DNA from: Deltaproteobacteria bacterium
GTDB taxonomy: Bacteria > Myxococcota_A > UBA9160 > SZUA-336
Assembly: GCA_031396695.1 (NCBI GenBank)
Contig: JANNLG010000056.1
Location: 3,853-67,852, forward strand
Reading direction: 5' to 3'
DNA length: 64,000 bases
In this document: positions 10,866-64,000 of the stretch, piece after piece
Layout of the letters: each line of letters starts with the position of its first letter
How positions within the stretch are numbered: the stretch's first letter is position 1
Notes under the pieces: generated by a model
Database searches by the model: none
Seen by the model: the letters and a program-made list of their open reading frames with translations, nothing else
What the model was told of the DNA's origin: nothing
Position numbers and translations under genes: made by a program

Positions 10866-10867
10866 GC

Positions 10868-14056: not shown

Positions 14057-14120
14057 GCGGGGCCGCGGTGGTGGAGGGAGCCGCTGCGGTTTCGCACGTA
14101 TCGTTTGAGAGGGGAATGCT

Positions 14121-17100: not shown

Positions 17101-19625
17101 TCCTGACACGCGGATTCCTGGCGATCGAACCGCTTGCGCGGCAGGACCAAGCCTACCAGGACCTCGGCTTGAGCCTTCAAAACGCCTCGGCTGCATTGCT
17201 GGGTTGCGGTGTGGCCTACGCCTCGCCCTGCAGCGGCGCGCAGCAGACGCAATGGGCCCGCGACCCGGCGATCGCCGCAGATCTGACGCGCGACCCGACG
17301 CTCGGTCCAGCCACGGTCGGCGGCATCGACTTGATGAATGCGGACGCGAGCGTCGTCACCCAGGAGTTCGTCGGCCTGAAGGCGCTCTCACCAGGCGCGC
17401 TGGTTGGAACGCGGCTCAACAACGCTGGCGCACTCTACTACCAGCCGGGGGTCAACTTCAGCCGCGACGGCCAGCAGGACATGAACATCGACGAGGACTT
17501 CAGTCGACAGGGTCGCGAGCTCAACCCGCCGATTGCAGTTTCGGCGCTCGAGAGCTCGGGCGAGTACCTGAACTTGACCCCCGACGACGTCATCGACCTG
17601 GGTGTGCAGGGCCGCGCGGAGTACCAGATCCAAGCCGGCAACATCCTCGAAGCGGATAGCTGGGTCGAGCCGATGCCGTGGACGGTCAACGAGGAGCTGC
17701 TCGAAAAGTACGGCGCGATCGTGTTCAACGCCGATCCGAGCAACGTGCTCGATCTCGATAGCCCGCTGAACAAATGGAACTTGATCGATCCGAACCAGGA
17801 CCCGAACGACCTCGCGAACATCCAGTACTCGGACATCGACGGCGAGTACTGCGCGCGCTGGATGAACTCGACGGACACGGACATCTCCACGCCGTTCAAC
17901 CTCGGGTGCACCGCGCTCGAGACGGTCTCGGCGAACTTCGAGCGGCTGCTGATCAGCATCGAGGAAATCGGCTTCGACCGTGTGTTCGACGCGCCTGAGA
18001 GCCTTCAGGAACTCGGCTACTGGTCGGAGTCGAACACCGCGCGCCAGGCCGCCGGCGATCCGGTCTCGGGTTCCGACGGAATCTACGCGCGCAATCAGTT
18101 CGTGATCTCGAGCGAGCAGATGGATTTCGACGTGGTCGCCGCCGCGCCCACGGGCGATTCGACTTTCATTTTCGTGGACATCGCCGCGAGCGAGACTCCG
18201 CAGCAAGCCGCCGCGCGAACGCTGCTCGAGTTTGATCCCCAGGAAGGGTGTCTGAGCGCGTTCTGCTACCTGCAGGTCAACAACGTCCTGGTCGATCCCG
18301 ACGACGCCGCTCCGGAGGGCCGCGACTTGATCCTCGCGATGCCGGTCGGCTTCACGGTCGACATCATGTCGCCGATCGTGGATCCGAACGACCCGAATGG
18401 CCCAGTCAACCCCAACGATCCGAATCAGCAGTTCGAGAACACCGGCTTCGACCGCAAGGTGAACCCGGCCGCGCTCCAGTACCTGCAGCAGACGGCGGGC
18501 GACACTTCGCTGCGGCGCCTGCTCGCGTCGCAGGTGATCGCGGTCGAGACGCCGACCGGCATCGAGTACGTGCAGATGAGCAACGAGCAGCGCGATCAGC
18601 TGCTCGGAGAGCTCGGCGACGCGCTCAACCGCGGTCGCGACATGGACGGCGACGGCAGCTCGGATCTCGACCGCAACCGCGACTCGGTCTGGGACGGGAT
18701 CGACGACTACAGCGGCGGTGGACCGATCACCGACGACAACATCCTGTGCGGCACCGGCATCCCCGGCGATCCACTCCAGGACGGCGTTCAGTACAGCCCG
18801 TTCCGCAGGGACCAGGACATGAACTCCGAGGCCTTCCGGGCGATGTTCCCGAACGGTCTGCCCCCGCGTTCGCCGGTGTTCTGCCGCGGCGTGTCGGGCA
18901 TCCTCAGCGCCACCAACCAGACGCTGCCGATTCGCAAGGCGGGCGGCGACGGCCGCTACGGCCGCCGCGACTTCCTGTGGCAGAACGGACGCCAGGTCGC
19001 GTTCAACTACCAGAAGCGGAACGTCATGGGCTTCGGTCTCGACTTCGCGGAAGACGTCACGAAGACGAGCTGGGGTCTGGAGTTCTCGTGGATGGCGAAC
19101 AAGCTGCTGCCGAACAACTTCGAGTACGACGGCTATTCGCAGACCGACGAGATGGTGCTGTCGATCTCCGTCGACCGGCCAACCTTCTTCAACTTCCTGA
19201 ACCCGAACCGCAGCTTCTTCATGAACCTGCAGATGTTCCTGCGCTACCTGCCCGACTACGAGGGCGGCCGTGGCGGCAACGACGGCATGTACGGCGCTGC
19301 GGGCGCATCGCTCACCGGCAACATCGCGTTCACTTTCTTCACCGGCTACTTCCAGGATCGCCTCGCGCCGCGCGTCACGATCCTGTACGCGCCGTGGGAG
19401 TCGCAGGGCGCGTTGCTCACGGGCCTGTCGTACCGCTGGAACGACGCGTTCTCGACCAGCATCGGCTGGACGCAGTTCTTCGGTCACATCTACAAGCAGC
19501 AGGGCGGATACTTCCCGATCGCCCAGTACGGCTCGGTCGCCGACTACAACGGACCGGTCCTGCGCGGCGTCGCGCCGGTCCTGTACCGAGACCAGGCCGA
19601 AGTCCGGATTCGCTACACCTGGTAA
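14121..19625 (+). CDS. Giant (1834 aa) secreted outer-membrane protein; DUF1302-like beta-barrel N- and C-terminal segments flanking an insert of over 1000 aa rich in Asp, Asn and Gly
   Basis: Signal peptide LLAALVLGVLLLGGGLARTASA. N-terminal FSIHGFYETRLMFVG resembles DUF1302 starts. The C-terminal roughly 300 aa show alternating-hydrophobic beta strands and end in ..VRIRYTW (aromatic terminal residue typical of outer-membrane barrels). The internal sequence carries DPNDPNGPVNPNDPN and DMDGDGSSDLDRNRDSVWDGIDD (thrombospondin-3-like calcium-binding motif). GAGAGGGG precedes the ATG. Confidence 0.75.
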   Translation: MRGRLTQGLLAALVLGVLLLGGGLARTASAFEWDLPGERKFSIHGFYETRLMFVGSELPINGATWSSFRHVLSTELELTLFPDGFGPFDSMFMFSRFLVSYDCIYTYSCGTFNSADSYGDDKRRAVRQPLSLREDAKNNAPYFAGLLKSTYRPGSIVSPQEVLNPSRRYRDCDNPPGVFANPFPLAVFCNLNSRSPLDNPNNQTGNKTWEVRAGTFHPFTRPSLTAAARSAIGNEEYDRLQGLLISGQVLSRSETAFRLTLLAEAGEAQARGDEDLAEALNAQADAVLGTPETTFDANIPALLATRPDPNRFAEYANSMTPALLKAKWGSGQLRNLVFPFLATINTPIAPGGYFNNGAPLDSIGQYDQALGETLSANLGGLPIVSDADGQPVFSASNAQNRVNPFFVGPDGLRDSADDLPFVTNNPAAQEAGYQLATPLQGAAGTPENLLASFDGTFGRNAPGNAARPIYAQAARIVVPSASDPSATKIVELYGVYSNEYLVNRGCGAVSGSYNTATGQCVRAGGDVSAEAQARGCSVIVRGTRGQQVNVGVNADGQCIEMNTTSPAPNSQLQFEVLGLLGDLNARPFEASIEPLNTTDFRAVAEGGVNNTMPARPRMAQQGIVYQSPGARREYEQYHDLVSNLDLKYSVDSLQWNHGASQREHEFAEGYVEFEMADSQLYARVGKLIVVWGKTELFRNQDRNNPLDIGNGIFAPLEEQRVGQWAVDLTISPEAFMRVGPVEDLRLELLTIVNPFEPTDLGKCGEGTAIELICLKSFGAMANGLAGIGVIGEHRPYDDYAGIERWDFGARIEGRFDRFTFAISDFWGWDDGFYLDLVQQYERTSDITTGAPLSVGSRGNSTGCTIRTNSEGEAVGPNNIAGDGDDDFPSAGNCLLWDPPETPDAAQLLRPTDSVAALQNVNQTLFHSLCAYTFDPDEGFCAFDRLNYPLEFGLISNIISGLGVLGAAVTDGVESIQQKRLDGRTSVVQRGSPTILTRGFLAIEPLARQDQAYQDLGLSLQNASAALLGCGVAYASPCSGAQQTQWARDPAIAADLTRDPTLGPATVGGIDLMNADASVVTQEFVGLKALSPGALVGTRLNNAGALYYQPGVNFSRDGQQDMNIDEDFSRQGRELNPPIAVSALESSGEYLNLTPDDVIDLGVQGRAEYQIQAGNILEADSWVEPMPWTVNEELLEKYGAIVFNADPSNVLDLDSPLNKWNLIDPNQDPNDLANIQYSDIDGEYCARWMNSTDTDISTPFNLGCTALETVSANFERLLISIEEIGFDRVFDAPESLQELGYWSESNTARQAAGDPVSGSDGIYARNQFVISSEQMDFDVVAAAPTGDSTFIFVDIAASETPQQAAARTLLEFDPQEGCLSAFCYLQVNNVLVDPDDAAPEGRDLILAMPVGFTVDIMSPIVDPNDPNGPVNPNDPNQQFENTGFDRKVNPAALQYLQQTAGDTSLRRLLASQVIAVETPTGIEYVQMSNEQRDQLLGELGDALNRGRDMDGDGSSDLDRNRDSVWDGIDDYSGGGPITDDNILCGTGIPGDPLQDGVQYSPFRRDQDMNSEAFRAMFPNGLPPRSPVFCRGVSGILSATNQTLPIRKAGGDGRYGRRDFLWQNGRQVAFNYQKRNVMGFGLDFAEDVTKTSWGLEFSWMANKLLPNNFEYDGYSQTDEMVLSISVDRPTFFNFLNPNRSFFMNLQMFLRYLPDYEGGRGGNDGMYGAAGASLTGNIAFTFFTGYFQDRLAPRVTILYAPWESQGALLTGLSYRWNDAFSTSIGWTQFFGHIYKQQGGYFPIAQYGSVADYNGPVLRGVAPVLYRDQAEVRIRYTW

Positions 19626-23756: not shown

Positions 23757-24833
23757 CTCCGGCGCTTCCTTCGCGGCCTCGTAGCCCTTCCACGAGTGCG
23801 ACGCGAAGTCGTACAGTTTGCACGCGCGCGTGGTGCGCAGGTAGTCGGCGAAGCGGAAGCTCCGTTCGCGCACGACGTCGCCGAAGTCGCGCCGGATCGC
23901 GTCGCACGCTTCGGGCAGGCGATAGAAGGGGATGCGCATGTCCACATGGTGAGGCACGTGCAGCATGATGTTGTGCATGAAGAAGTTCACCCAGGCGGGC
24001 ACGTGCAGGATCGTGGTGCCCTCCATCTGACCCTTGAAGCGCGTCCACTCGCGGCGGCTCTGCCAGGCGATCTCGGGCGAGATGTGGTGCACGTACACGG
24101 CGATGCCGATCACGTAGTTCCACAGTGCGAACGGCACCGCGAAGACCTTGAACCAGAGCCAGAGCGCGCCACCGACGCTTCCGTACAAACCGATGCCCGC
24201 GGCGAGCAGGGCGACGTGGATGACGGCCGCGTAGGCCCACACGATCGCGCGGTCGCGCTTCACGTCCGCGGCGATCTTGGCCGGGGCGTCGAAGCGCATC
24301 ATGTTCTTCCACCAGATGTCCCAGCCGTAGTACACGCCGGCTCCGAGCCACGACCACTTCACGCGGTGGAGCGCGCGCTGCACGGGGGTCATGGCGCGAT
24401 ACGACTCGGGCGTGGCGGGATGCCAGACGTAGTCCATCACCTCGCGCACGGTGTGGCCGTGGTGGATGCGGTTGTGCCCGAACACCCAGGCCTCGTACAC
24501 GTGCAGCGACGGCAGCATGGCCGCCTGCCCGACGATGTAATTCATGCGCTTGCTCGCGAACAGCGCGCCGTGCGCGGCGTCGTGTCCGATGATGAAGAGC
24601 GCGCTGATCGAGAGCGCCGTCAGCACCCAGAGCGGCACCAGCAGGAAGATCGAATCGACCGCGAAGAGCAGTGCGACCATGCCCGCATAGATCGCGATGT
24701 CGCGCGCGAAGTAGAGCAACCCCAAGGCGGTCGGGTTCTCGTAGACGTGCTCGGGGAGCTTGTCGATCACGTCGCTGATCGTGGGACCGGACTCGACCTC
24801 TTCAGGCGCCGCGGATTCGATGGGACTTGCCAT
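23739..24833 (-). CDS. Membrane fatty-acid desaturase family protein
   Basis: Three His boxes ([20 protein letters not shown]) within multi-TM segments. Probable ATG at 24833 (MASPIES..). Confidence 0.8.
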
Positions 24834-24958
24834 TGGCCCAAAGGGTATACACGCGGCGGCGGGGGCGCGCCTTCCGCGCGTCAAAGTTCGGTAAAACCGC
24901 TCATTCCGGCTGGTATGATCGCGGCGCACTCCGGGCTGTACGTAGTGGAGGTAAGTCG

Positions 24959-26068
24959 TTGAAGACATTGGCGGCCGTCGCGTGGGAGCCGGGGAAACCC
25001 CTCGCGATCGAGCAGGTCGAGCTCGAGGGTCCGAAGGCGGGCGAATGCCTGGTCCGGCTGGCTGCGACCGGAGTCTGTCACACCGATGCGTACACCCTGT
25101 CCGGCAAGGATCCGGAAGGCCTGTTCCCGGCCGTGCTCGGGCACGAGGGCGCGGGCGAGGTGGTCGAGCTCGGCGCGGGCGTGCGCTCGCTCGCGGTCGG
25201 CGACCACGTGATCCCGCTCTACATTCCCGAGTGTCGCGAGTGCAAGTTCTGCCTTTCCGGCAAGACCAACCTGTGCGCGCGCATCCGCGAGACGCAAGGC
25301 AAGGGTGTGATGCCCGACGGCACGAGCCGCCTGTCCGCGCGCGGCAAGACCGTGCACCACTACATGGGCACGTCCACCTTCGCGGAATACACCGTGGTGC
25401 CGGAGATCGCGCTCGCCAAGGTGCGCAAGGACGCGCCGCTCGATCGCATCTGTCTGCTCGGTTGCGGCGTCACGACGGGAATCGGCGCGGTGCTGCACAC
25501 GGCCAAGGTCGAGCCGGGCTCGTCGGTGGCGGTGTTCGGGCTGGGGGGGATCGGGCTGTCGGTGATTCAGGGCGCGGTGATGGCGGGTGCGGAGCGCATC
25601 ATCGGCGTCGACCTGAACCCGCGGAAGTTCGAGCTCGCGAAGGCTTTCGGCGCAACCGATTTTCTGAACCCGAAGGACACGGCCGATGTCGCGGCTGCGA
25701 TCGTGTCGCTGACCGACGGCGGTGTGGACTACTCGTTCGAGTGCATCGGCAACGTCGACGTGATGGGCCAGGCGCTCGCCTGTACGAGCCGAGGCTGGGG
25801 CCAGGCGATCATCATCGGCGTGGCGGGCTCCGGCCAGGAGATCCACGCGCGGCCGTTCCTGCTGGTCACCGGCCGCACCTGGCGCGGCACCGCGTTCGGC
25901 GGCACGAAGGGCCGCACGCAGCTGCCGCGCTTCGTCGACCGCTACATGAACGGCAAGCTCAAGCTCGACGAGATGGTCACCGCCGAGCTTCCGCTCGAGC
26001 GCATCAACCACGCCTTCGAGCTGATGCACGAGGGGTCGGCAATCCGCTCGATCATCAAGTTCCGGTGA
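24959..26068 (+). CDS. frmA: S-(hydroxymethyl)glutathione dehydrogenase / class III alcohol dehydrogenase
   Basis: Nearly collinear with E. coli FrmA/AdhC ([65 protein letters not shown]..). TTG start at 24959. Confidence 0.9.
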
Positions 26069-37431: not shown

Positions 37432-37748
37432 GCAGCGGAGGCTCGCTTGCCCGAGGCCCGGAGACAAGACCCGAGGCGGTCGGGGCCGGCAACTCGGGGC
37501 GACCGGCAGCGGGCACGCAAATGCCCGAGGAACGTCACGCGTCTGGTGCGGATTCCTCGCCGAGTCCGCGCCACACTGCGTCACCAAAGCCGCAATCCGG
37601 TCACATTCGATGAGAGCGCGGCGCCGGTGCGGGGGATTGTGGGTATCGGCCTACGCGAAGTAGACTCCCGGTTCTGGCGTGTGAAACCGCGCAAGCGCCA
37701 CCGGGCCACGCCGCGCGGCCAAAGACCTCCCTCCCCGAAGAGCACAGA

Positions 37749-40367
37749 ATGAGCGTCTCCTCCAAGTCGAACGTCCGAGCTCTCCTGTCGCTGCTTCTGG
37801 CGGCGGCGGTTTCGAGCGCGTCCGTTCACGCGGCAGAGACCTCGATCGACGTCACCAAGACCGCCGCTTCGCTGCCCGCGGCTCACCTGCTCGAGGCTGC
37901 GCGCGCAAAGAACGTGCTCGGTGTCGGCAAGGCGCTCGCGGACGGCGCGCCGCTCGAGTCGCGAGGTTCCGACGGCGCGACGGCGCTGCTGCTCGCCTCG
38001 CGCGCGGGCTCGGCCGAGATCGTCGAGCTGCTGATCGAAGCCGGCGCGAACGTCAAGGTGAGCGACGTCTCCGGCTTCACGGCGCTGATGCGCGCGGGCG
38101 AGCGCGGCCACCTCGACATCGCGCAGCGCCTGCTCGAAGCCGGCGTCTCGGCTAACGCGCAGAACGTCTCCGGCGCCTCCGCGCTTCAGCTCGCCGCATC
38201 CGAAGGCAAGCTGCCGATCGTGCGGCTCCTGCTCGAGCACCAGGCCGATCCGAATCTGCGCGACCAGAGCGGCGAGACGCCGCTGATGGTCGCGGCGCGC
38301 AACGGCAAGACCCGCATCGTGGATGCGCTGGTCAAGGCGGGTGCGCGCGTGAACGAGCGCTCCAGCGACGGACGATCCGCGCTGATGTTCGCCGCCGGCA
38401 CTGGCCGCACCTACACCGTCGGCGCGCTGCTGGCCGCGGGCGCGGATCCGGCCGCGATCGATGACGCCGGCGCCAGCGCGCGCGAGCACGCGCAGCGAGC
38501 CAAACGCGGCGACATCGCGAACCTGCTGCAGGCGCTCGAGGCGCTGCCGGAGGACTCGGCGATCGGCACGTCGTTCGTGATTGCGGAGGGCGCGGACATC
38601 GAGATCGGCCGACCCACCACCTCGACGCTGATCTCGGCGCTGCTGGCCAAGGGCGCCGACGTGAATGCGCGCTCGTCCGAGGGCAAGACTGCGCTCCTGC
38701 TCGCCGCCGAACGCGGTCGCACGGAGACCGTCTCGAAGCTGATCAAGAGCGGCGCCGACGTGGACGCGGCCGACGCCAGCGGTCAAACGGCCGTCGAGCG
38801 CGCCGCGCGCGAAGGCCATCGCGAGATCGTGTCGACGCTGCGCCGCGCGGGCGCGGACGTCTCGCAGACCGATCCGACCGTGCTGATCCCCGAGCTCAAG
38901 GCCGCGGGTGATCTGTTCGTGGACGCGGCGCGCACCGGCGATGTGAAGCTGCTGCGGCAGATGATCGAGAAAGGCATCGATCTCGACGGCATGACGCACG
39001 GCGGCCAGACCGCGCTCGGCGAGGCCGCGCGCCAGGGCGAGGTCGAATCCGCCACGATCCTGATCGAGGCCGGCGCGACCGTCGACGACACCACGAATGC
39101 GGGCCAGACGCCGCTGATCCGCGCGGTGAGCGAAGGCCGCACCGACATCGTGAAGCTGCTCGTGCTGTCGGGCGCGGATGTGAATCGCGCCACCCACTCC
39201 GGCACCACGCCGCTGATGGAAGCCTCGACGTCGGGTGTGGAAGCGGTCGTGCGCATCCTGCTCGAAGCCGGCGCCGACACGCGTGTGGGCGTCGAGACCG
39301 GCCAAAGCGCGCTCTCGCGCGCCGCGCGCGAGGGTCACAACTCGATCGTCGAGCTGCTGCTCGCGCGCGATCCCGGTCTCTCCGTGCGAGGCGCGCAAGG
39401 TGACATCGCGCTGACCCGCGCCGCGCAGACGGGCCAGGTGCAGACGGTCGTCACGCTGCTGCGCTCGGGCGCCGATCCGAACGCGCGCGATCGCAAGGGT
39501 CTGCCGGCGCTGGTGCTCGCCGCACGCGAGGCTCACACCGAGGTGATGGCCGAGCTGCTGCGCGCGGGCGCGGACCCGAACGGCCGCACGCGCAACGGCC
39601 AGACGCCGCTGATGTTCGCGGCCATGAACGGCCGCGCTCCGGCCGTGACCGCGTTGCTCAAGGGCGGCGCGCACGCCAACGATCGCAGTTTCACCGGCCA
39701 GACGCCGCTGATGTACGCCGCCTGGAAGGGCCGCACGCGCGCGATCTTCGCGCTGCTCGGCGCTGGCGCCGAAGTGAACGCGCGCGCCGAGGACGGTCAG
39801 ACCGCGCTGATCCGTGCGGTCCGCGAGGGGCAGCTCGAGGCCGCGCGTGCGCTGTTGAAGCACGGTGCGGATCCGAACCAGGTCGATCGCCAGGGCTGGT
39901 CACCGCTGCTCTACGCCGCGGCGGCCGGTCACGGTCAGCTCGCGCTGTTCCTGCTCGAGAAAGGCGCCGATCCCAATGCCAAGGGCTCCGACGGCCGCAC
40001 TGCGCTCATGCTCGCGGCCCTCCTGCCCAGCGACGTCGAAGCCTCCGGTCGCCGCGACGACTCGAACAAGGCGCTCGTGAAGGCGGCGCGCGACGGCCAC
40101 ACCTCGTACCTGCGCTCGCTGCTCGCGAAGGGCGCGGGCCCAGACACGCGCGACGAGAACGGCTGGACGCCGCTGATCCACGCCTCGGCCGCGGGTCACG
40201 AAGAGATCGTGCAGTTCCTGCTGCAGAGCGGCGCCGCGCCGAACGCGCGCACCGCCACCGGCCTGACCGCGGCCACGCTGGCCTCGGCGCACGGCCACGC
40301 GCTGATCGTCCGCATGCTGTTCGACGCGGAGCACGGCGTTGGTCAGCAAGCGCGCACGCCGAACTGA
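37749..40367 (+). CDS. Secreted ankyrin-repeat protein (872 aa, about 24 ANK repeats)
   Basis: Signal peptide LLSLLLAAAVSSASVHA, then tandem 33-aa ANK units (..GxTALMxAAxxGHxxIVxxLLxAGADVNA..) across the entire length. Confidence 0.85.
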   Translation: MSVSSKSNVRALLSLLLAAAVSSASVHAAETSIDVTKTAASLPAAHLLEAARAKNVLGVGKALADGAPLESRGSDGATALLLASRAGSAEIVELLIEAGANVKVSDVSGFTALMRAGERGHLDIAQRLLEAGVSANAQNVSGASALQLAASEGKLPIVRLLLEHQADPNLRDQSGETPLMVAARNGKTRIVDALVKAGARVNERSSDGRSALMFAAGTGRTYTVGALLAAGADPAAIDDAGASAREHAQRAKRGDIANLLQALEALPEDSAIGTSFVIAEGADIEIGRPTTSTLISALLAKGADVNARSSEGKTALLLAAERGRTETVSKLIKSGADVDAADASGQTAVERAAREGHREIVSTLRRAGADVSQTDPTVLIPELKAAGDLFVDAARTGDVKLLRQMIEKGIDLDGMTHGGQTALGEAARQGEVESATILIEAGATVDDTTNAGQTPLIRAVSEGRTDIVKLLVLSGADVNRATHSGTTPLMEASTSGVEAVVRILLEAGADTRVGVETGQSALSRAAREGHNSIVELLLARDPGLSVRGAQGDIALTRAAQTGQVQTVVTLLRSGADPNARDRKGLPALVLAAREAHTEVMAELLRAGADPNGRTRNGQTPLMFAAMNGRAPAVTALLKGGAHANDRSFTGQTPLMYAAWKGRTRAIFALLGAGAEVNARAEDGQTALIRAVREGQLEAARALLKHGADPNQVDRQGWSPLLYAAAAGHGQLALFLLEKGADPNAKGSDGRTALMLAALLPSDVEASGRRDDSNKALVKAARDGHTSYLRSLLAKGAGPDTRDENGWTPLIHASAAGHEEIVQFLLQSGAAPNARTATGLTAATLASAHGHALIVRMLFDAEHGVGQQARTPN

Positions 40368-40396: not shown

Positions 40397-41209
40397 TTGC
40401 GAATCCGTGACGCGCTCGGGCGCGAGCACGCGTTCGCGGCCCCGCCGCGCCGAATCGTCTCGCTCGTACCGTCGCTGACCGAGACGCTGTTCGCGCTGGG
40501 CGTGAACGAATCGCTCGCGGGCGTGACCGACTTCTGTGTCCACCCGGCCGACGGCGTCGCGTCGAAGGCGCGCGTCGGCGGCACCAAGAACCCGAACCTG
40601 GCGGCGATCCGCGCGCTCGCGCCCGACCTCGTGCTCGCGAACAAGGAAGAGAACCGACGCCGCGACGTCGAGGCGCTCGAGGCCGACGGCGTGCCGGTTT
40701 TCGTCACCTACGCGCGCACGGTGCTCGAGGCGGTCGACGAGATCCGGCTGCTGGGGCGCCTCTGCGCCAGCCCGGAGCGCGCTGCGAGCCTCGCCGCGGA
40801 GGTCGAGACCGAGCTCGCGCGCGCGGCCGCGCACAGAGCCGCCCGCGCGCCCACGGCCACGGTCGCGCTCGTCTGGCGCGAGCCGTTCATGGTGGTGGGC
40901 GGCGACACCTTCGCGCACGACTTGTTGCGCTGCTGCGGCGCGCGCAACCCGTTCGCCGATGCCGGCACGAGCCGCTATCCGCGCGTGGACCTGCGCGCGC
41001 TCGAAGCCGCGCAGCCCGAAGTCATCCTGCTGCCCACGGAGCCGTACGCGTTCGGCGAGCGCGATCGCGACGAGCTGCTGGCGCTCGACTGCCCCGCGTC
41101 GCGAGACGGACGCGTGCACGTGATCGAGGGCGAGCTCTTGTCCTGGTACGGCCCGCGCATGCCGCGCGCGCTGCGCACGATCGCGCGCTTGCTACTTCCA
41201 GGTGCCTGA
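40397..41209 (+). CDS. TroA/BtuF-like (class 8 periplasmic-binding-protein fold) substrate-binding protein without an obvious signal peptide
   Basis: ..RIVSLVPSLTETLFALGV..LAGVTDFCV..PDLVLAN.. matches the cobalamin/siderophore-binding helical-backbone receptor pattern. TTG start 30 nt after the ankyrin stop. Confidence 0.65.
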   Translation: MRIRDALGREHAFAAPPRRIVSLVPSLTETLFALGVNESLAGVTDFCVHPADGVASKARVGGTKNPNLAAIRALAPDLVLANKEENRRRDVEALEADGVPVFVTYARTVLEAVDEIRLLGRLCASPERAASLAAEVETELARAAAHRAARAPTATVALVWREPFMVVGGDTFAHDLLRCCGARNPFADAGTSRYPRVDLRALEAAQPEVILLPTEPYAFGERDRDELLALDCPASRDGRVHVIEGELLSWYGPRMPRALRTIARLLLPGA

Positions 41210-42253
41210 GCCGCCGAGCGCCGTGCCGCAGCTCGCGCAGAAACGTGCATCGGCCTCGTTCAGCGCTTTGCAGCTCGAGCAGGCCACGCTGGCGGCGCCC
41301 TGGCGCACGCCGCAGCGCGAGCAGAAGTTCGCACCGGCTGCGACCGCCGAGCCGCAGGCCACGCACTTCGGTGTCGCGGCCGCGGCCGAGCCGCCGCCGA
41401 GTGCGTTCGTCACGACACCCGCCATGCCCGCGCCGAGCCCGAGACCCGCGCCTGCGCCGACGCCCGCCGCCGCGAGGCCGGAGCCCCCGCCGCCGCCCGA
41501 GCCGGCCGCCTTCTCGAGGGCATTGGCCGCCTGGTAGCGCACGAACGAATCGAGCGAGCCGACCGCGGCCATGCCGCCGCGCTTGTCGATCATCTCCTGC
41601 ACGTGGTCCGGCGGGGAGATCGACATGATCTTGAAGTCCGCGAGCGTCACGCCGTACTTCTCGAAGTCCGAGATCAGCCGAGCCTGGATGCCGGCCGACA
41701 GCTCGACGTAGTACTGCGCGAGATCGAGGATCGTCGACAGGTGCGAGCCGAGGAAATCGGCCACCTGGTTGACGATGAAGCCACGGAAGAAGCCCTCGAC
41801 GGCCTCGCTCTTCAATTCCGGCAGAGTCCCGACGACGGTATTCAGGAACACCTGCGGGTTCGAGATCCGGAACGAGTACATGCCGAACGCGCGCAGCCGC
41901 ACCATCTGCAGCTCGCTGTCGCGGAACAGGATCGGCTCCATCGTGCCCCACTTCTGGTTCACGAACGTCTTCAGGTTCGTGAAGCAGACCTCGGCGCGGA
42001 AGGGGCTCTTGCCGCCCATCGGCAGCGAGAGGGCCTTCGTCAGCAGCGGGATGTTCAGCGTCGAGAGCGTGTGCCGGCCCGCGCGAAAGGTGTCGAGCGC
42101 GCGGCCGTCGCGGAAGAAGATCGCGGCCTGGCTCTCGCGCACCACGAGCTGCGCGCCCAGCTTGAGCTCGGCCGAGCCCGCTTCGGGAAAGCGCGACACG
42201 ATCGTGTCGGAGCTGCTGTCGAGACACTCGATGACTTCAATGAACTGCGACAT
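41192..42253 (-). CDS. SPFH/band-7 domain protein with a Gly/Ala-rich linker and a C-terminal double zinc ribbon (COG4260-like)
   Basis: SPFH core (..AIFFRDGRALDTFRAGRHTL..FRAEVCFTNLKTF..), a GGGGGSGLAAAGVGAGAG linker, then CVACGSAV..CSRCG and CSSCKAL..CASCG. GAGGTGAG precedes the ATG. Confidence 0.8.
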   Translation of the reverse strand: MSQFIEVIECLDSSSDTIVSRFPEAGSAELKLGAQLVVRESQAAIFFRDGRALDTFRAGRHTLSTLNIPLLTKALSLPMGGKSPFRAEVCFTNLKTFVNQKWGTMEPILFRDSELQMVRLRAFGMYSFRISNPQVFLNTVVGTLPELKSEAVEGFFRGFIVNQVADFLGSHLSTILDLAQYYVELSAGIQARLISDFEKYGVTLADFKIMSISPPDHVQEMIDKRGGMAAVGSLDSFVRYQAANALEKAAGSGGGGGSGLAAAGVGAGAGLGLGAGMAGVVTNALGGGSAAAATPKCVACGSAVAAGANFCSRCGVRQGAASVACSSCKALNEADARFCASCGTALGGSGTWK

Positions 42254-42256
42254 GAC

Positions 42257-42745
42257 TCACCTCGATCCCAGGCCCAGTATGGCGGTTCGCCGATCGGCGA
42301 GCGCCAGCCCGAGCCGCTTCACGACCGCGCGCACGGACGCGGCTTGGAATTCCACGTCCGCGACCTGCGCGGCGATCTGTTCGATCTGATCCACGATCCG
42401 CTCGTCCTTCTCGTAGACCGCGTCGAGCCGCGAAGAGGCGTCGAGCTTGACCTCGTCGAAGAAGCCCGAGTAGCCGCGATCCGCGTGGCGCAGCTCGGCG
42501 CGCAGCTTCTCCACGTCGTTCATCAGCTCGTGCAGGTCGTTCAGCTGATCGAGCGCGGAGTTGGCCGCGACCTCGTGCAGCTCGCGCACCACGCGCTCGA
42601 GCCGGGTCGCGCCGTGATCGCGCAGCAGCTTGTCGGCCTCGCGCCGCGCCTCGCGCTCCGCGTAGCCGCGAAAGCCGGGGATGCGCCCCACCAGGCGCTC
42701 GAGCGCGTTGCGCTGCTCGCGAATCGTCTCTTTGACTCTCGCCAT
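42257..42745 (-). CDS. Small (162 aa) predicted coiled-coil protein of unknown function
   Basis: It is the C-terminal portion of an overlong track ORF. Its own ATG is preceded by GGGAGG, and its stop is 3 nt from the SPFH start (likely translational coupling). Confidence 0.55.
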   Translation of the reverse strand: MARVKETIREQRNALERLVGRIPGFRGYAEREARREADKLLRDHGATRLERVVRELHEVAANSALDQLNDLHELMNDVEKLRAELRHADRGYSGFFDEVKLDASSRLDAVYEKDERIVDQIEQIAAQVADVEFQAASVRAVVKRLGLALADRRTAILGLGSR

Positions 42746-42852
42746 GGCTGGCCTCCCGTGCCCGTACGCGCCACGCGGGATCAGACGCGCGCGGCTGCAA
42801 GGCTGCTTCGGCGCGGCTCCGGAGCGGCTTGAGGCGAGCGCCGGCGCGCCCT

Positions 42853-44502
42853 TCAGGCCAGCGAGAAGGCCCGGGACAAGCGCGGCAGGCGGCCGTCGTC
42901 CGCCAATACCTCGAGCGGCACCGGGCGCATGCCGGGCGAGGCGGCCGCGGGATCCCCGCCCGCGTCGGCGGGGCACGGGAACCAGTGGCCGCCGAACAGC
43001 GCGAGCGGCAGCACCGTGAGCTGCGGGTCGCCGGCCTCGAGCTGCGCATCCATGACCAGCTTCTTGAAGCTCATCCCGTTCAAGCTGCGGGTACTTTGGG
43101 CGTCGTGCAGCGCCACCAGCGTGTAGCGCGCGAGCGCGACTGCCTCGCTGGGCTCGAGCTCGACGTCGAGCAGCCGGATCGCGTCGACGGACGATGCGCG
43201 CTCGACGCGCACGGGCGGCTGACGCCAGGTGGCGGTCGCGGCGAGCGCGCCGAACGCGTCGTCGAGCGGACGCGAGCCGAGCAGCGCGCGCGCGGGAATG
43301 AACAGGCGGCTCTGCGCGGGATCCTGCTCGCGGTAGCGCGTTGCGGCCGGCTGCGGTGCGACCGCCTCGAGCCAGTCCCAGACGCGCGTGAAGTCGCGAC
43401 CACCGGCGCGCACGCAAAAGGGCAGGGACCAGAACGGGAAGCCGATCAGCGCGTCGGGCCGCGGACCCTCGGGCATTGCGCCGAACGCGTAGGCGTAGCT
43501 CTCGAGCCCGTCCGGCGTGATCCGGATGCCGAGCGCGCAGCTCGCGCAGAACGCGATCTTCGCGCGTTTGGGGAGCGTGAGCGCCGCACCGCAGTTCGGG
43601 CACTCCGAGGCGAGCGCGCGCAGGCGCGGCTTCACCATCACGTCCGCGACCGCGCGCTCGGGCAGCGCGCGAAAAACCGCGGCCTCGTCGCCCGAGAGCT
43701 TGCCGGCGATCGTGTCGAACTGGCGGTCGACCAGATAGTCCTCGGCCGTGCCCGCGCGCCGCACGCGCGCCGCGCTCATGTGCTTCCAGATCGAGAGCCG
43801 GCGCTCCCGCACCACGCCGTCGATCTGCGTGATCACCTGCGCGCCGGTGTCGAGCTTGAAGCGCGCGCGGTCCGCGCGCAGGCCGACGCGGTTCGGTGTC
43901 GCGTCGGCGGATTCGAGGTAGCGGTTTCCGCCCCCCTGACGGTGTGCCTCGGCCAGCAGCTCGAGGCGCGAGCCGCGGATCTTCAAGCCACGGTCGCGCA
44001 GGTTCAGCCGCGCCGGGTCGTAGCGCCGGCGCAGGTCCTCCGTGCGGAAGCACTGCACGAAGCTCTCCTTCGCGGCGCCGCGCCGGCCGAGCACGCCCTG
44101 CACGACCGTGCGCTCGTGCAGCTCGTACGGCACCAGGAAGTCGATCGTGTCGACCGGCTCGAGCTCGGCCTCGAGCTTCGCGCGCAGGAGCGCCACGCGC
44201 GCCTCGATCAGCGCCGGGATCTCGAGCGAGAGTCCTTCCTGGTTCTTGGCGTTGCCGGTGAGCTCGTTGCGGTAGCTCTCGGTCTCGAAGCGGATCAGGA
44301 GCTCGACCACGTCGAGCACCGCACCCTGCTTCACGGTCGAGACGACGAACACCTCCTCGCCCAGCAGCCGGCCGCAGGCGAGCAGCGAGCCGCAGTAGGC
44401 GCAGGCGGCGGATTCGTCCCAGATCCCGACGACGATCGCGGCGCCACACTCCGGGCAGTGCAGCTCCACCTCGAGCGGTTCGGCGCCGTCGTCTTCCGCC
44501 AT
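42853..44502 (-). CDS. Hypothetical protein (549 aa) with two CxxC...CxxC zinc-ribbon motifs
   Basis: CPECG..CAYCG at the N-terminus and CPNCG..CASC mid-protein. Composition is protein-like, unlike the overlapping Arg/Ala-rich antisense ORFs. No clear SD sequence. Confidence 0.6.
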   Translation of the reverse strand: MAEDDGAEPLEVELHCPECGAAIVVGIWDESAACAYCGSLLACGRLLGEEVFVVSTVKQGAVLDVVELLIRFETESYRNELTGNAKNQEGLSLEIPALIEARVALLRAKLEAELEPVDTIDFLVPYELHERTVVQGVLGRRGAAKESFVQCFRTEDLRRRYDPARLNLRDRGLKIRGSRLELLAEAHRQGGGNRYLESADATPNRVGLRADRARFKLDTGAQVITQIDGVVRERRLSIWKHMSAARVRRAGTAEDYLVDRQFDTIAGKLSGDEAAVFRALPERAVADVMVKPRLRALASECPNCGAALTLPKRAKIAFCASCALGIRITPDGLESYAYAFGAMPEGPRPDALIGFPFWSLPFCVRAGGRDFTRVWDWLEAVAPQPAATRYREQDPAQSRLFIPARALLGSRPLDDAFGALAATATWRQPPVRVERASSVDAIRLLDVELEPSEAVALARYTLVALHDAQSTRSLNGMSFKKLVMDAQLEAGDPQLTVLPLALFGGHWFPCPADAGGDPAAASPGMRPVPLEVLADDGRLPRLSRAFSLA

Positions 44503-44553: not shown

Positions 44554-45609
44554 TCAGCGGTTGCGCTGCGCGGCGAGCGATTCGTAGCTGGGCTTGCCGT
44601 TCGCGTCCCACTCGCGGAACAGCTCGAAGAACTCCGGACCCATCGGGTTCTTGCCGCGAATCGGCATCGAGCCGCGCCGGATCGTCCAGTCGTTGGGCGA
44701 CAGCTCGCCCGCGCGCACGAAGTGGCGCTCGGCGGCTTCGACCTGACCCTGCTGGTGCAGGCGCCAGGCGAGCGAGAACTCCGCGCGTGCGAGCTCCTCG
44801 TCGGGCGTCGGCGGAACCGTGCGCTTCGCGATCTGTTCCGCAGGAACGTCGCTCTTCCCGCTCCGCACCCAGGCGCGCACGGCGGCGAGGAACGGCGCCG
44901 ACTCGCGGCCGTGGAACTGCTTGAACATGTCCGTGCCGTACTCCATCGCGCTTGGCCGCGCGATCCGGCCTGCCTCGTCGATGAACACCACCGTCGGCAC
45001 GTTGATCATCCCGTACAGGTGGGCGACGCGGTGTTCGGTGTCGATCAGGCTCGGATGCGTCGGCCGCGCCTTGTCGATGAACGGGCGCGCGTCGTCGGCC
45101 GACCTGTCCAGCGCGACCGTGACGGGCACGAAGCCGGAGTCGCCGAGCTCCTCGTACAGCGCCTGCCACACGGGCAGGTCCTCACGACAGCCTCACCAGG
45201 AGGCGTAGGCGACGAGCAGCACCTTCTTTCCGCGCAAGCCGCCGAGCGACCACTCCCGCCCCGTCAGATCGGGCAGGCGGAAGTCCGGCGCGATGCCCCC
45301 TTTCAGCACCTCGCCGCGCTCGCGGGCCGAGGCGCCCAGCGAGGCAATGCGCTCGTCGAGATCGAGCGCGAGCGGGCGCTGCAGGAGCTCGGCCAGCGCC
45401 TGGAGGTCGACCTTGCCGTCGGCGACCACACCCGCGCGGCCGGCGATCGGCACGCAAACGTCGCCGAGGCACAGGCCCTCGGGCTTCAGCACCCAGCCCA
45501 GCGACCGTTCGAGCGCGTTTGGGGAGAGCCGCACGCGACCGCCAGCGAGATCGGCCGCGACGGACGTCGCGCGGCCCTCGTCGAGAATCGTGAAGGGATG
45601 TTCGGCCAT
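44554..45609 (-). CDS. Thioredoxin-fold (TlpA/ResA/redoxin-like) selenoprotein, 351 codons, with an in-frame TGA (Sec) replacing the first active-site Cys (..LVAYASW-U-GCREDLP..)
   Basis: Track ORFs 45193..45750 and 44554..45171 are in the same frame, separated only by a TGA at 45193-45195 (complement). Their fused translation gives APDFRLPDLTGREWSLGGLRGKKVLLVAYASW-U-GCREDLPVWQALYEELGDSGFVPVTVALD..VPTVVFIDEAGRIA, collinear with TlpA (APDFTLPDLDGK..GKVVLVNFWASWCxPCRxE..). GAGGAGG lies 5 nt upstream of ATG 45609. Confidence 0.75.
45162..45178 (-). promoter_or_regulatory. SECIS-like hairpin 14 nt downstream of the UGA of the Trx-like selenoprotein
   Basis: CCUGCC-CGUGU-GGCAGG: a perfect 6-bp stem with a 5-nt loop containing G and U. 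Position matches a bacterial SECIS. Confidence 0.45.
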
Positions 45610-45792
45610 CGGGCCTCCTCGCCACGCGATTCTGCGCGCGCGCACAGCGTTGGCGCAAGCGCGTCGAGAAAGCCGTGTTGCGGCGTGGGTTACGCGATAG
45701 ATTTGCCGATCGCGCAGAGCGCGCGCCCCTTTTCGGGTGCGCCGGGACACTATCTAGGACGAGGACCGCGGCACCCGTGCGCGCGGCGAGAG

Positions 45793-51246: not shown

Positions 51247-52116
51247 CTACGCCGGCCGGTACTCGGAGTACTGCGGCAGCGCGTCGTGGATCGCGTACCA
51301 CGGCGACTTCGATTTCACGAAGATGTGCGCGCCCTCGCGCACGCCCGGGTCGTCCTCGAACGAGCCCGCGGGAATCACCGCCATCTGGCTGACCGGATTC
51401 GCGCGTGGCACGGGCGAGCCGCAGTCGCGGCAGAACGCCTGCGTGAAGCGCTCCGCCTCCGGCACCTTGTACGAGTCGACGCGATCGGCGCCGCGCAGCC
51501 AGCGGAAGCGCGCCATCGGCGCGAAGAAATTCGTGGCGTGCGCGGCCGCCCGCGCCTTGCGACAGCGCGAGCAGTGACAGCAGACGATCACGCCCTCGAG
51601 CGGCGCGTCGACTTCATAGGCGACCGCGCCGCACAGGCAGCCGCCGCGCACCACGCCGAGTTTCGCTTCGAGCACGCGCTTGGTCGGAAGCGCTTCGCCC
51701 ATACCGGGTGGAAAGCCCTCGAACTGCGGCACCGAGTCCGCGATCTCGTGCCACGGCGCCTTCGAGCCGACGAAGATGTGCGCCATCGGAGCGATCTTCG
51801 GGTCGTCGTCGAGCAGGCCGGCGGGCACGTAGCGGATGCCCGAGTGCGCGTCGCTCGCGACCACCGAGCCGCAGCGCGGGCAGAACGGACGCGGATTGCC
51901 GGGCGACGACTCGCGCTTGCGAATCTTGTCCGCTCCGCGCAGCCAGCGGAACGAGCTATCCGAAACCGAGATGAAGCTCGCGAACGCGCTGCCGTGCGTC
52001 TTCCGGCACATGCCACAGTGACAGTGCGAGAGCGTCGCCGCCAAGCCATCGATCTCGAACGCCACATCGCCGCACAGACAGCTTCCACGGAGCATGCGGC
52101 CAGTATACTCGTCCAC
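51247..52116 (-). CDS. Tandem GFA/CENP-V-family (glutathione-dependent formaldehyde-activating-like) zinc protein
   Basis: Two repeats of the C..C..CHC..C zinc motif (GSCLCGDV..CHCGMC; GGCLCGAV..CHCSRC). Confidence 0.7.
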   Translation of the reverse strand: MDEYTGRMLRGSCLCGDVAFEIDGLAATLSHCHCGMCRKTHGSAFASFISVSDSSFRWLRGADKIRKRESSPGNPRPFCPRCGSVVASDAHSGIRYVPAGLLDDDPKIAPMAHIFVGSKAPWHEIADSVPQFEGFPPGMGEALPTKRVLEAKLGVVRGGCLCGAVAYEVDAPLEGVIVCCHCSRCRKARAAAHATNFFAPMARFRWLRGADRVDSYKVPEAERFTQAFCRDCGSPVPRANPVSQMAVIPAGSFEDDPGVREGAHIFVKSKSPWYAIHDALPQYSEYRPA

Positions 52117-52185
52117 AGAAGCAGGAAGCCCCGGTCCCCGCCAACGCGGATGACCGGGGCTTCGTGTTTTCGAAGTGCTAGGCGC

Positions 52186-61871: not shown

Positions 61872-61924
61872 CGTAGCCAAAGACGTTGCTTGACGGGTCC
61901 GGAGCCCGGGCCGAAGGTAGACCG

Positions 61925-64000
61925 ATGCTGTGCGCGCGGTGCGGGACGGAGCTCCTGCCGGGAAAGAAGTTCTGCCACGCGTGTGGCGTCGCCGCGGCGG
62001 CGGCCTGCGCGTCGTGCGGCGCGCGCATCGACCCGAGCTGGCGCTTCTGTCCCGAGTGCGGGCGCCCGATCGGCGAGGCCGCGAAGCGGATCGTGGAGCC
62101 AGCGACCGCGGCCACGGGGTCTGCTTCCGCACCGGCTCCCATTCCCGCGAATGCGCCGATCGCGCGCATAGCGGAATCCATTCCCGAGCCGCTCGCGGCG
62201 CGCATCCGCTCCTCGGGCGCGGTCGCCGGCGAGCGCAAGCGGGCGACGGTCTTCTTCTGCGATCTGGTCGGCTCGACCGCGCTCGCGGAGCGGCTCGATC
62301 CCGAGGTCTACCGCGAGCTGCTCGATCGCTACCTGGAGCTGGTGTTCGCAGAGATCTACCGCTTCGAGGGGATCGTGAACCAGCTCGCGGGCGACGGGCT
62401 GATGGCGCTGTTCGGCGCGCCGATCGCGCATGAGGATGCGCCCGAACGCGCGGTGCGCGCGGCGCTCGCGATCCAGACCTCGCTCGGCGAGCTCTCCAAG
62501 CGCCTGCTCGCGGAGCGCGGCGTCGCCTTGCGCGCGCGCGTCGGCATCCACACCGGGATCGTGGTGGCGGGCACGGTCGGCAACGACCTGAAGATGGACT
62601 ACACCGCGATCGGCGACACCACGAATCTGGCCGCGCGGCTGCAGTCGCTCGCGGCGCCGGGCACGATCATGGTGTCCGAAGCGACGCACGCGCTGCTGCG
62701 CGGCGGTTTCCGCACCGCGCCGCTCGGTCCGTTCGACGTGAAGGGCAAGCGCGAGCCGGTCTCGGCGCACCAGGTGCTCGGCCTGGCCGAGCGCGCGCCG
62801 GCGTTCAGCGGCGAACGAGGCGAGCTGACGCCGCTGTTCGGTCGCGAAGCGGAGCTCGCGCAGCTCGAGGGTTGCTTCGATCGACTCGAGACGGGGCTGG
62901 CGCAGGTGGTGTCGATCGTCGGCGATGCGGGCATCGGCAAGTCGCGACTCGTGCACGAGCTGAAGAAGCGTCTCTCCGGGCGCGAGTTCGAACTGCTCGA
63001 GACGCGCTGTTCGTCGCTGACGCGCTCGGTGCCGTACGCGCCCTGGACGGCGATGCTGCGCGGTTGGTTCGGCGTCACCTCTGCCGACGACGAGCGCTGC
63101 GCGTGCGAGAAGATCGGCAAGCGGCTGGAGAATGCGGAAGGGACGAGCGACTCGGACTACTCGGATCTGTGTTGGATGCTCGCGCTGCCCGTCGAGGCCA
63201 AGGCCGATGCCGAGCACCAGCCGGCGACTCCGCACGGCTTCGCGGCTGTCTCGCGTCTGATCGAGCGCACCTCGCGGCGAGTGCCGGTGGTGATGATCAT
63301 CGAGGATTTGCACTGGCTCGACGACGCGTCGCGCGAGGTGCTCGAGAAAGCGGTCGCACACGCGGGTGGGGCGAGGCTGATGATCGTCACGACGCACCGC
63401 CCCGAGCACAAGCCGCACTGGCAGCCGAACGGCGCGTTCACGCAGCTGCGCCTGCGGCCGCTCGGCGAGCTCGACGCAGGCAAGATCGTGCGCGCGCGCG
63501 CGGGTGGCGTGGTGCCGCGCGAGGTCGAAGAGCGCATCCTGCGCAAGGCCGACGGCAATCCGTTCTACCTCGAGGAGCTGACCCGAACGCTGGTCGAGGA
63601 CGGCACGCTGGTCGCGCGCGACGGACAGGTCGTGGTGACGCGCCGCTCCGAGGAGATCCGGATTCCGGACACGATCGGCGAGGTGCTCGGCGCGCGCATC
63701 GACCGGCTGCGACCGGCCGCGAAGCGCGTGGCGCAGGTCGCGTCCGTGCTCGGGCGACAGTTCCATCGCAGGCACCTCCAGGTCCTGCTCGAGCCCGAGT
63801 CGATCGACGTCCTGGCCGAGCTCGCTGAGCTCGAGCGCCGCGGCGTGCTGCACCGAAACGGCGGAATGGCGACCGACGAGTTCCGCTTCGGCGAGAGCCT
63901 GACGCAGGAGGTCGCGTACGAGGGCCTGCTCCTGCGCGAGCGCAGGTCGCTGCACGACCGCGTGGCGGCGATGCTCGAGGCGGAGAGCCGCGACCCGACA
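61925..64000 (+). CDS. Class III adenylate/guanylate cyclase fused to a STAND/AAA ATPase, with an N-terminal double zinc ribbon (5' part; continues beyond the window)
   Basis: Hand translation: MLCARCGTELLPGKKFCHACG..CASCGARIDPSWRFCPECG; cyclase motifs ATVFFCDLVGSTA and GDGLMALFGAP; P-loop SIVGDAGIGKS. Not in the ORF track because there is no stop before the window end. Confidence 0.8.
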   Translation, partial: MLCARCGTELLPGKKFCHACGVAAAAACASCGARIDPSWRFCPECGRPIGEAAKRIVEPATAATGSASAPAPIPANAPIARIAESIPEPLAARIRSSGAVAGERKRATVFFCDLVGSTALAERLDPEVYRELLDRYLELVFAEIYRFEGIVNQLAGDGLMALFGAPIAHEDAPERAVRAALAIQTSLGELSKRLLAERGVALRARVGIHTGIVVAGTVGNDLKMDYTAIGDTTNLAARLQSLAAPGTIMVSEATHALLRGGFRTAPLGPFDVKGKREPVSAHQVLGLAERAPAFSGERGELTPLFGREAELAQLEGCFDRLETGLAQVVSIVGDAGIGKSRLVHELKKRLSGREFELLETRCSSLTRSVPYAPWTAMLRGWFGVTSADDERCACEKIGKRLENAEGTSDSDYSDLCWMLALPVEAKADAEHQPATPHGFAAVSRLIERTSRRVPVVMIIEDLHWLDDASREVLEKAVAHAGGARLMIVTTHRPEHKPHWQPNGAFTQLRLRPLGELDAGKIVRARAGGVVPREVEERILRKADGNPFYLEELTRTLVEDGTLVARDGQVVVTRRSEEIRIPDTIGEVLGARIDRLRPAAKRVAQVASVLGRQFHRRHLQVLLEPESIDVLAELAELERRGVLHRNGGMATDEFRFGESLTQEVAYEGLLLRERRSLHDRVAAMLEAESRDPT

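Follow-up and report, generated by a model that had tools for sequence, protein, structure and literature searches.

Two open reading frames read as one gene: a probable selenoprotein, three-domain and UGC-containing, of TlpA/Prx-like type

Selenoproteins in which selenocysteine (Sec; U) and cysteine are separated by a single glycine, that is, which possess a U-G-C motif, have been catalogued for some time. A single U-x-C ‘Prx-like’ sequence is listed for the Sargasso Sea set (PMC1088965), and a ‘Prx-like (UGC-containing)’ family is listed for GOS, with 46 Sec and 855 Cys sequences (PMC2398784), where its prediction relied, as does that of the present gene, on the pairing of Sec with Cys forms. 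A UGC-containing family is found as well in a 2026 review (PMC13188914), and MDE0950781.1 is an example accession of the family as published. Going by the passages of these papers that concern it, the literature from 2005–2008 onward has included the family along with its U-G-C motif and its occurrence in both Sec and Cys forms, and the gene considered here is a further member. Those passages, i.e., those of PMC1088965, PMC2398784, and PMC13188914 as found by term, contain no mention of a three-domain architecture, of a SECIS element, or of experiments. What the published family and the protein described here have in common, as matched by a table row of the published account, is Sec as found within U-G-C, location of that motif within a pfam00578/TlpA-like domain, and the existence of Cys homologues. 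For the protein described here those properties consist of a PF00578 match of 59.9 bits (versus a cut-off of 26 bits), the U-G-C motif itself, and the Cys homologues described below.

The other described relatives are ResA, DsbE/CcmG, and TlpA. These are extracytoplasmic thiol-disulfide oxidoreductases which take part in cytochrome c or copper-centre maturation, and their TlpA-type thioredoxin fold is one that the present protein shares. They differ from it, however, in carrying CxxC, where it instead carries U-G-C, and in being secreted or membrane-anchored, whereas it has no signal peptide and possesses two extra domains. In terms of profile scores the protein reaches 66 bits versus ResA PRK03147 (cut-off 170) and 36 versus TlpA NF047696 (cut-off 230).

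Here ‘the window’ describes the whole of the stretch of DNA which was analyzed, 64 kb in length. An earlier note on this DNA had pointed to two open reading frames, 45193..45750 and 44554..45171 (minus strand), as sharing one frame and as representing a single Sec-containing TlpA/ResA-like gene that gene callers had split at its active-site codon. Both are indeed present in the list of open reading frames, and their frame is common. Translation of 45609..44554 (minus strand) has as its sole internal TGA codon 139 (45195..45193), and reads ...KKVLLVAYASW-*-GCREDLPVWQ... around that codon or, with the codon itself spelled out, ...GKKVLLVAYASW-TGA-GCREDLPVWQ.... Databases hold the gene as a pair of open reading frames, P0122 (138 aa) and P0001 (205 aa), each 100% identical to the window. 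The gene and its parts are as follows.

44554..45609, minus strand: complete selenoprotein gene, consisting of 351 codons plus a terminal TGA stop (44554-44556), with its ATG at 45607-45609.
45614..45619, minus strand: Shine-Dalgarno-like AGGAGG, 4 nt 5' of the ATG, as read off the sequence.
45193..45195, minus strand: in-frame UGA, codon 139, read as selenocysteine, at the N-terminal (attacking) Cys position of the thioredoxin-fold active site.
45187..45195, minus strand: U-G-C active-site motif (U139, G140, C141) with an invariant Arg directly after it, as found in all 81 family sequences and in the full-length alignments.
45162..45178, minus strand: bacterial SECIS-type hairpin, with 6-bp stem CCUGCC/GGCAGG and 5-nt loop CGUGU.
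45298..45609, minus strand: N-terminal beta-rich domain (aa 1-104), without a Pfam family.
45454..45471, minus strand: C47-x4-C52, a Cys pair invariant in 81 of 81 sequences and located within a beta-hairpin of the N-terminal domain (strands as seen in predicted models).
44914..45297, minus strand: TlpA/ResA/DsbE-like thioredoxin-fold domain (approximately aa 105-232).
44557..44913, minus strand: C-terminal helical, TPR-like domain (approximately aa 233-351), with an invariant D-W-T-I-R-R (helices from models; weak TPR matches).

The single-gene, Sec-decoding interpretation, as proposed in the earlier note, is sustained by five lines of evidence, i.e., the Sec/Cys pair, a covarying SECIS-type hairpin, purifying selection both before and after the UGA, collinear Cys homologues, and a ResA/DsbE/TlpA fold. 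Identification of the gene as that of a Sec-decoded selenoprotein belonging to the catalogued UGC-containing family we hold with great confidence.

The U-G-C spacing, one residue short of C-x-x-C as the earlier note had indicated, is real, and an indel across the site, toward which that note had expressed caution, is not seen. Two independent Logan assemblies, SRR20217199 and SRR20217201, which derive from different runs, possess an identical TGGTGAGGCTGT, and TGGTGAGGCTGTCGTGAGGACCTGCCCGTGTGGCAGG matches between them as well, with TGG TGA GGC in both. At the equivalent site S-W-C-G-C-R is invariant among aligned full-length homologues, in 20 of 20 and in 61 of 61. As this motif occurs there without exception, the three-residue spacing is a trait of the family and not an indel. 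A frameshift or indel at U-G-C is rejected, that is, given both the invariance of CGC in homologues and the agreement of the two assemblies.

A scan of one genome per species yielded 80 related loci, mostly from Myxococcota, ‘Deltaproteobacteria’, and Binatia MAGs. The codon in these loci that aligns with codon 139 is TGA in 65, TGC in 14, and TGT in 1. Orthologues with Cys at this position, which the earlier note had left as a matter to be checked, thus make up 15 of 80 loci, and the Cys is invariant in the 61 full-length homologues. The full-length Cys homologues are single proteins, 340–356 aa in length and 45–61% identical, which span both halves. In comparison with the two closest relatives (loci L001 and L002), dN/dS is 0.26–0.29 upstream of the internal TGA and 0.14–0.26 downstream, so that the part which follows the ‘stop’ is constrained at least as much as the part which precedes it. 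Both halves of the gene 44554..45609 are, as judged from these ratios, under purifying selection. Comparison of loci thus gives strong evidence of Sec decoding, and decoding of UGA139 is strongly supported over its use as a stop.

The hairpin too is as had been described, that is, 6 bp with a CGUGU loop, beginning 14 nt after the UGA. It is found as CCUGCC-CGUGU-GGCAGG at 45178..45162, at a distance from the UGA of 14 nt for the stem and 20 nt for the loop, and with an energy in isolation of -9.3 kcal/mol (both -9.3 and -10.4 kcal/mol are given). A 66-nt fold starting from the UGA has a z of only -0.33 versus shuffles, i.e., in sequence of approximately 70% G+C a hairpin as seen in one sequence is unremarkable, and the significance of this hairpin therefore comes solely from comparison of loci. 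The bSECIS model, as found in the pertinent passage of the 2026 review (PMC13188914), calls for a loop of 3–9 nt, a stem of 4–16 bp, a UGA-to-loop distance of 16–37 nt, a G within the first two loop positions which is then followed by G or U, and an energy of at most -7.5 kcal/mol. With its loop of 5 nt, its G at position 2 followed by U, its 6 bp, its 20 nt, and its -9.3 kcal/mol, the window hairpin lies within every one of these constraints. Rfam returned no SECIS or other RNA family, either for 500 nt around the site with E up to 10 or for the whole window at gathering score. The terminal TGA (44554-44556) has no such hairpin, and that this second TGA does terminate translation is strongly supported.

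Comparison among loci employed an alignment of 66 Sec forms, i.e., the 65 loci plus the window, over 66 nt starting at the UGA. Helix columns 18–23 and 29–34 are paired in 396 of 396 cells, and RNAalifold when supplied with the Sec forms finds exactly this helix and nothing else. The closing pair, in which the third base of an Asp/Glu codon is matched with the first base of whichever codon follows Gln, is CG in 51 of these sequences, UG in 9, GC in 3, UA in 2, and AU in 1, with 6 sequences having changed on both sides versus the commonest pair, C-G. A Pro-to-Ser variant (CCG to TCG) retains pairing by way of G-U wobble. Within the stem, the Leu codon (CTG) and the Gln codon (CAG) have third positions that are invariant in the Sec forms, whereas adjacent third positions vary. 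The loop, 5 nt, is CGUGU in the window and GGUCU in most relatives. All six pairs are kept in only 4 of 15 Cys forms, with the rest using CTC, CTA, TTA, or CAA, though since the Sec forms are closer kin to one another than they are to the Cys forms, part both of the stem conservation and of this contrast is inherited. Maintenance of the hairpin by selection in TGA forms only is, as read from this alignment, strongly supported. The SECIS question raised by the earlier note consequently is answered in the affirmative, in terms both of bSECIS constraints and of a stem which is conserved and covaries over 66 Sec forms. Upon translation, SelB along with Sec-tRNA(Sec) would bind the hairpin.

As to what surrounds the gene, the window is ordinary chromosome, encoding TrmFO, ArgB, ArgF, DnaK, PurN, AspS, a thiolase, an acyl-CoA synthetase, and further housekeeping proteins of this sort. 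None of selA, selB, selC, or selD was found within its 64 kb, as based on scanning of approximately 40 window open reading frames, a tRNA search, and Rfam, and no tRNA genes were found within the 64 kb either. Clustering of open reading frames over the 80 loci plus the window gave no conserved neighbor or partner gene; the neighbor families that do recur are large and generic ones, i.e., SDR, luciferase-like/P450, and enoyl-CoA hydratase. Nor were cytochrome c maturation or Sco genes found near the selenoprotein gene. As the gene stands alone, that is, without a conserved neighbor, its context supplies no clue as to substrate. A zinc-ribbon-like protein of 549 aa, an SPFH protein, and an alpha/beta hydrolase, all encoded nearby, are common to the three closest relatives only.

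Were the TGA a true stop, then what is present would be two genes, of 138 aa and 205 aa, or else a pseudogene resulting from nonsense mutation. Databases do record the locus as P0122 and P0001, and TGA is also the normal stop codon of this very gene. A stop, however, would have to recur at this one codon in the genomes of 65 species while aligning with Cys in 15 others, would have to interrupt what in Cys homologues is a single protein of 340–356 aa, and would have to be followed by sequence which both displays purifying selection (dN/dS of 0.14–0.26) and forms a covarying hairpin. The second open reading frame, moreover, has its GTG (45171-45169) located in the hairpin loop, inside of active-site helix alpha-1, and because translation would begin there its product would be without U-G-C and without the initial strands of the fold. 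On these comparative data (65 TGA and 15 Cys loci, dN/dS, hairpin) we reject both a pair of separate genes and a pseudogene, the probability that we would assign to them being negligible. Decoding of UGA139 could in principle also occur without Sec, by near-cognate insertion of Trp or Cys or in association with a reassigned code, and it is consistent with such read-through that Sec machinery is not seen within the 64-kb window. A reassigned code is rejected, though, as TGA serves as the normal stop both of 44554..45609 and of the gene at 42257-42790, which likewise ends in TGA. Read-through without Sec is at odds as well with the position being that of an invariant catalytic Cys in homologues, with a downstream hairpin that falls within SECIS limits, and with the lack of any other in-frame TGA candidate in the 64-kb window, where scanning produced only adjacent genes sharing a frame. 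We view it as highly improbable.

Pfam was run on the translation with U replaced by C, and aa 106–217 match AhpC-TSA (3e-16) and Redoxin (7e-13). Structure was modeled using a Cys homologue (P0004; 61% identical) along with the exact N-terminal segment from the window. Nearest to the model, both by structure and by profile, are ResA, DsbE, and TlpA but not peroxiredoxins, with 4txo, the TlpA-ScoI complex, found among structural matches; collinearity of the fused translation with TlpA/ResA, as had been claimed, is thereby borne out. Profile alignment to DsbE and ResA-type structures sets WASWCG.CR against WASWCGpCR, i.e., a one-residue deletion, and places codon 139 opposite the first Cys of WCxxC, which is precisely where the earlier note had put the Sec codon. 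The protein is thus, with strong support, one of ResA/DsbE/TlpA-type thioredoxin fold, with Sec as the attacking residue, located where helix alpha-1 has its N-terminus; equally well supported is a resolving Cys that follows Sec by two residues and not by three. The cis-proline that is typical of thioredoxin-fold oxidoreductases is absent in 10 of 81 family members.

The remaining two domains also are present as earlier claimed. At the N-terminus is a domain of approximately 100 aa that has no match in Pfam, and a profile search with this domain found no other architectures, just N-terminal fragments of Sec forms as cut at the UGA (mostly of approximately 138 aa). Matches of 97–100 aa to it stop within the linker and have the appearance of truncations. 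In its sequence the window protein shows no hydrophobic segment at the N-terminus, and neither a signal peptide nor a membrane anchor was found in it or in any aligned full-length homologue. In the predicted model the N-terminus is instead a folded, soluble domain from residue 2, and it packs together with the thioredoxin-fold domain in a confident model (pTM 0.92). At the C-terminus the model has helices, TPR_2/TPR_14 match weakly over aa 275–312, and the TPR matches from profile searching are at profile positions 261–306. Here D307, W308, T309, R311, and R312, from the D-W-T-I-R-R motif of the tail, are invariant in 81 of 81 sequences. Cys/Sec positions which are invariant over the 81 sequences number exactly four, i.e., 47, 52, 139, and 141.

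In terms of chemistry, the U139 selenolate would attack a disulfide of the substrate or some other oxidized sulfur or selenium species, and C141 would then resolve the resulting intermediate, producing, by analogy, a strained, 11-membered selenenylsulfide ring. CXC disulfides, according to what Woycechowsky and Raines are said to have described in 2003 for a CGC peptide and for thioredoxin with Pro34 deleted, are strained, more oxidizing, and isomerase-like. By that same analogy a strained ring may favor rapid exchange, that is, isomerase-like chemistry, over the action of a deep-potential reductase. The C47-x4-C52 pair may serve as a second redox pair, passing electrons to or from the U-G-C center, and the TPR-like tail, likewise as reasoned from analogous domains, may recruit a specific client protein. 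Action presumably would be cytoplasmic, this because neither the protein nor its aligned full-length homologues possess a signal peptide or membrane anchor. This specific chemistry, grounded as it is in analogy, is put forward tentatively. The more encompassing statement, i.e., that 44554..45609 is one gene, its product being a selenoprotein of three domains which is cytoplasmic and belongs to the ‘UGC-containing TlpA/Prx-like’ family, nonetheless is one that we regard overall as very probable.

The same selenoprotein might instead be mainly a peroxidase, Prx/GPx-like, with hydroperoxide converting U139 to a selenenic acid, C141 resolving, and regeneration of the enzyme then proceeding by way of either a cellular thiol or the Cys pair of the N-terminal domain. 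The active-site motif of peroxiredoxins is of the PxxxTxxC type. The VAYASW-U-GCR context has no Thr/Ser-x-x-Cys arrangement; W-U-G-C-R is of thiol-disulfide oxidoreductase type, less one residue, and nearest structures and profiles, as indicated, are those of ResA, DsbE, and TlpA. A primarily peroxidatic role appears unlikely. Alternatively, C47, C52, U139, and C141 could jointly coordinate a metal or metalloid, or else an Fe-S cluster, making the protein a metallochaperone or sensor and not a disulfide oxidoreductase. Conserved Cys/Sec residues do number exactly four, located in two domains which pack together (model pTM 0.92), and relatives of the TlpA type do serve in copper-protein assembly, as illustrated by the TlpA-ScoI complex (4txo). 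CXC motifs, furthermore, can contribute to a metal site that is shared, the zinc clasp of CD4-Lck (PMC4354306) being an example. Arguing to the contrary is that conserved neighbors, as sought over the window and the 80 loci, include no genes for metal handling, that no His ligands are conserved, and that profile searches point to no metal-binding family, all of which leaves metal binding a decidedly poor prospect. A combined proposal, in which an N-terminal fold that is without a characterized relative sets C47-x4-C52 against U139-G-C141, giving either a relay of selenosulfide/disulfide type or a metal site with four ligands (Se/S3), is speculative and, on balance, doubtful. If either of those were true, then the clade would represent a self-contained, cytoplasmic redox module unlike any characterized thioredoxin-fold enzyme.

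As the family has long been catalogued, the value of this gene as a discovery is modest, and it should come as no surprise to a selenoprotein specialist; its usefulness is as a correction to annotation and as a candidate for biochemistry. The correction consists of replacing two hypothetical open reading frames (138 plus 205 aa) with one selenoprotein of 351 aa, and the same split recurs in database entries by the hundreds, those for Myxococcota, Binatia, and related lineages.

A curated model does exist for near relatives, NF041054 ‘WAxxUGC_long’ (ResA-like WAxxUGC motif-containing protein), though the name ‘WAxxUGC’ had no matches in the literature as searched by term. Versus this model the window protein has an E-value of 3.8e-80 and a score of 269.8 bits, which is below the cut-off of 300 bits, and ten other members of the clade, including both Sec and Cys forms, score 222–272 bits, mainly over profile positions 7–205. 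True NF041054 members (P0269, P0280, and P0303) instead score 395–515 bits over the whole profile. BLASTP of the window protein versus P0280 gives 35% identity (E of 1e-60), collinear over aa 28–323 and including the C-terminal motif L.P.(D/N)WT..R. Shared with NF041054, and in the same order, are three domains: an N-domain, which contains GW.LKP.G.C....CVP; a fold like that of ResA, which contains SW(U/C)GCR; and a TPR-like tail, where L.P.(D/N)WT..R is found. Distinguishing true NF041054 members from the window protein, by contrast, are their being without the first approximately 20 residues (two beta-strands) and their possession of an insert of approximately 25 aa after the thioredoxin fold. 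The A-x-x-U-G-C of the NF041054 motif is present in the window protein. At position -4, however, where the NF041054 motif has Trp, the window and most of the Sec-form loci listed have Tyr (YASWUGC); Trp, His, and Phe also occur. From these alignments the window protein belongs to a sister clade of NF041054, one of the same architecture that is missed by the curated model, and it probably is because this clade falls below the 300-bit cut-off that its Sec forms are recorded as two fragments. The family as a whole comes to 326 cluster representatives at 50% identity (E <= 1e-30), fragments included. In light of that model, what the earlier note had singled out as unusual, namely the U-G-C spacing, an N-terminal domain found in place of a signal peptide, and a TPR-like tail, while all present, are instead defining traits of a catalogued family, with NF041054 having the same architecture.

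Beyond the family, comparison can be made with DsbD, where, as seen with its N-terminal domain in association with CcmG (PDB 1z5y), the Cys pair of a beta-rich domain hands electrons to a TlpA-like fold. Comparison can also be made with CXC redox motifs, such as those of a CGC peptide and of thioredoxin with Pro34 deleted (Woycechowsky and Raines 2003, ref. 79 of PMC12561257), the latter being the exact Cys counterpart of U-G-C. Such systems share with the window protein two redox-active chalcogens split by one Gly, in a thioredoxin-fold active site. The CXC examples, however, i.e., the CGC peptide, Pro34-deleted thioredoxin, and the CGC triad of NOX2, come either from engineering or from proteins that are unrelated, whereas what is found here is a natural U-x-C thioredoxin-fold active site, accompanied by a second invariant Cys pair within an N-terminal domain that matches no Pfam family. 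It should make for a good system in which to study how a selenosulfide ring that is shorter by one residue tunes redox potential and reactivity.

Scored against the NCBIfam model NF041054 ('WAxxUGC_long'), which has a curated cut-off of 300 bits, those members of the selenoprotein's clade which were tested fell at 222-272 bits, that is, all of them below the cut-off, with Sec and Cys forms alike in this regard (homologous proteins P0004, P0045, P0066, P0089, P0102; related loci L001, L015, L035, L055, L077). The Sec forms of this clade would therefore go unrecognised by the curated model; in the protein collections they are present as fragments, i.e., of 138 aa and 205 aa.

The cis-proline of the thioredoxin fold (INVPT; the site is aa 205 of the window protein) is replaced by serine (INIST) in 10 of the 81 family members, including loci L013, L015, L027, and L032 along with 6 others. 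Serine in place of the cis-proline is unusual among active thiol-disulfide oxidoreductases.

For several TGA-form loci, the record title labels the source bin as either Spirochaetales/Spirochaetaceae or Nitrosopumilus (L010, L028, L030, L033, L036, L039, L049, L063). Otherwise the selenoprotein gene is found solely in Myxococcota, Binatia, and 'delta' lineages, and this distribution points to contigs which have been mis-binned. The same labels might instead reflect horizontal transfer of the gene.

Directly downstream of the selenoprotein gene, following a gap of 51 nt, are three genes on the same strand, together occupying window 41192-44502 (minus):

Gene 1, minus: 549-aa protein with a zinc-ribbon-like start (CPxC...CxxC)
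Gene 2, minus: 177-aa ORF
Gene 3, minus: SPFH/Band_7_1 protein with a double zinc ribbon at its C-terminus

No Pfam family was found for either the 549-aa protein or the 177-aa ORF. The three-gene arrangement is common only to the window and its 3 closest loci.

Elsewhere in the window are found the following:

10619-14056, plus: ORF of 1145 aa encoding a transporter domain of the MMPL family
14109-19625, plus: 1838-aa ORF of coding-like composition, with no Pfam match
24779-26068, plus: class III alcohol dehydrogenase/S-(hydroxymethyl)glutathione dehydrogenase
37614-40367, plus: 917-aa ankyrin-repeat protein (Pfam Ank_2, 1e-165, 12 stretches)
51247-52185, minus: protein with two glutathione-dependent formaldehyde-activating (GFA) domains
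61877-64000, plus, continuing past the window end: TIGR03903-like protein with a zinc-ribbon-like N-terminal start

The 1838-aa ORF adjoins that encoding the MMPL domain, and the ankyrin repeats span nearly the whole of their protein, an array which is large by bacterial-genome standards. The double-GFA protein and the class III alcohol dehydrogenase together hint at thiol-dependent formaldehyde handling in the source organism. The protein at the window end matches TIGR03903 at 2.6e-86, below cut-off, and resembles that family, i.e., the kinase/cyclase fusions of TOMM systems.
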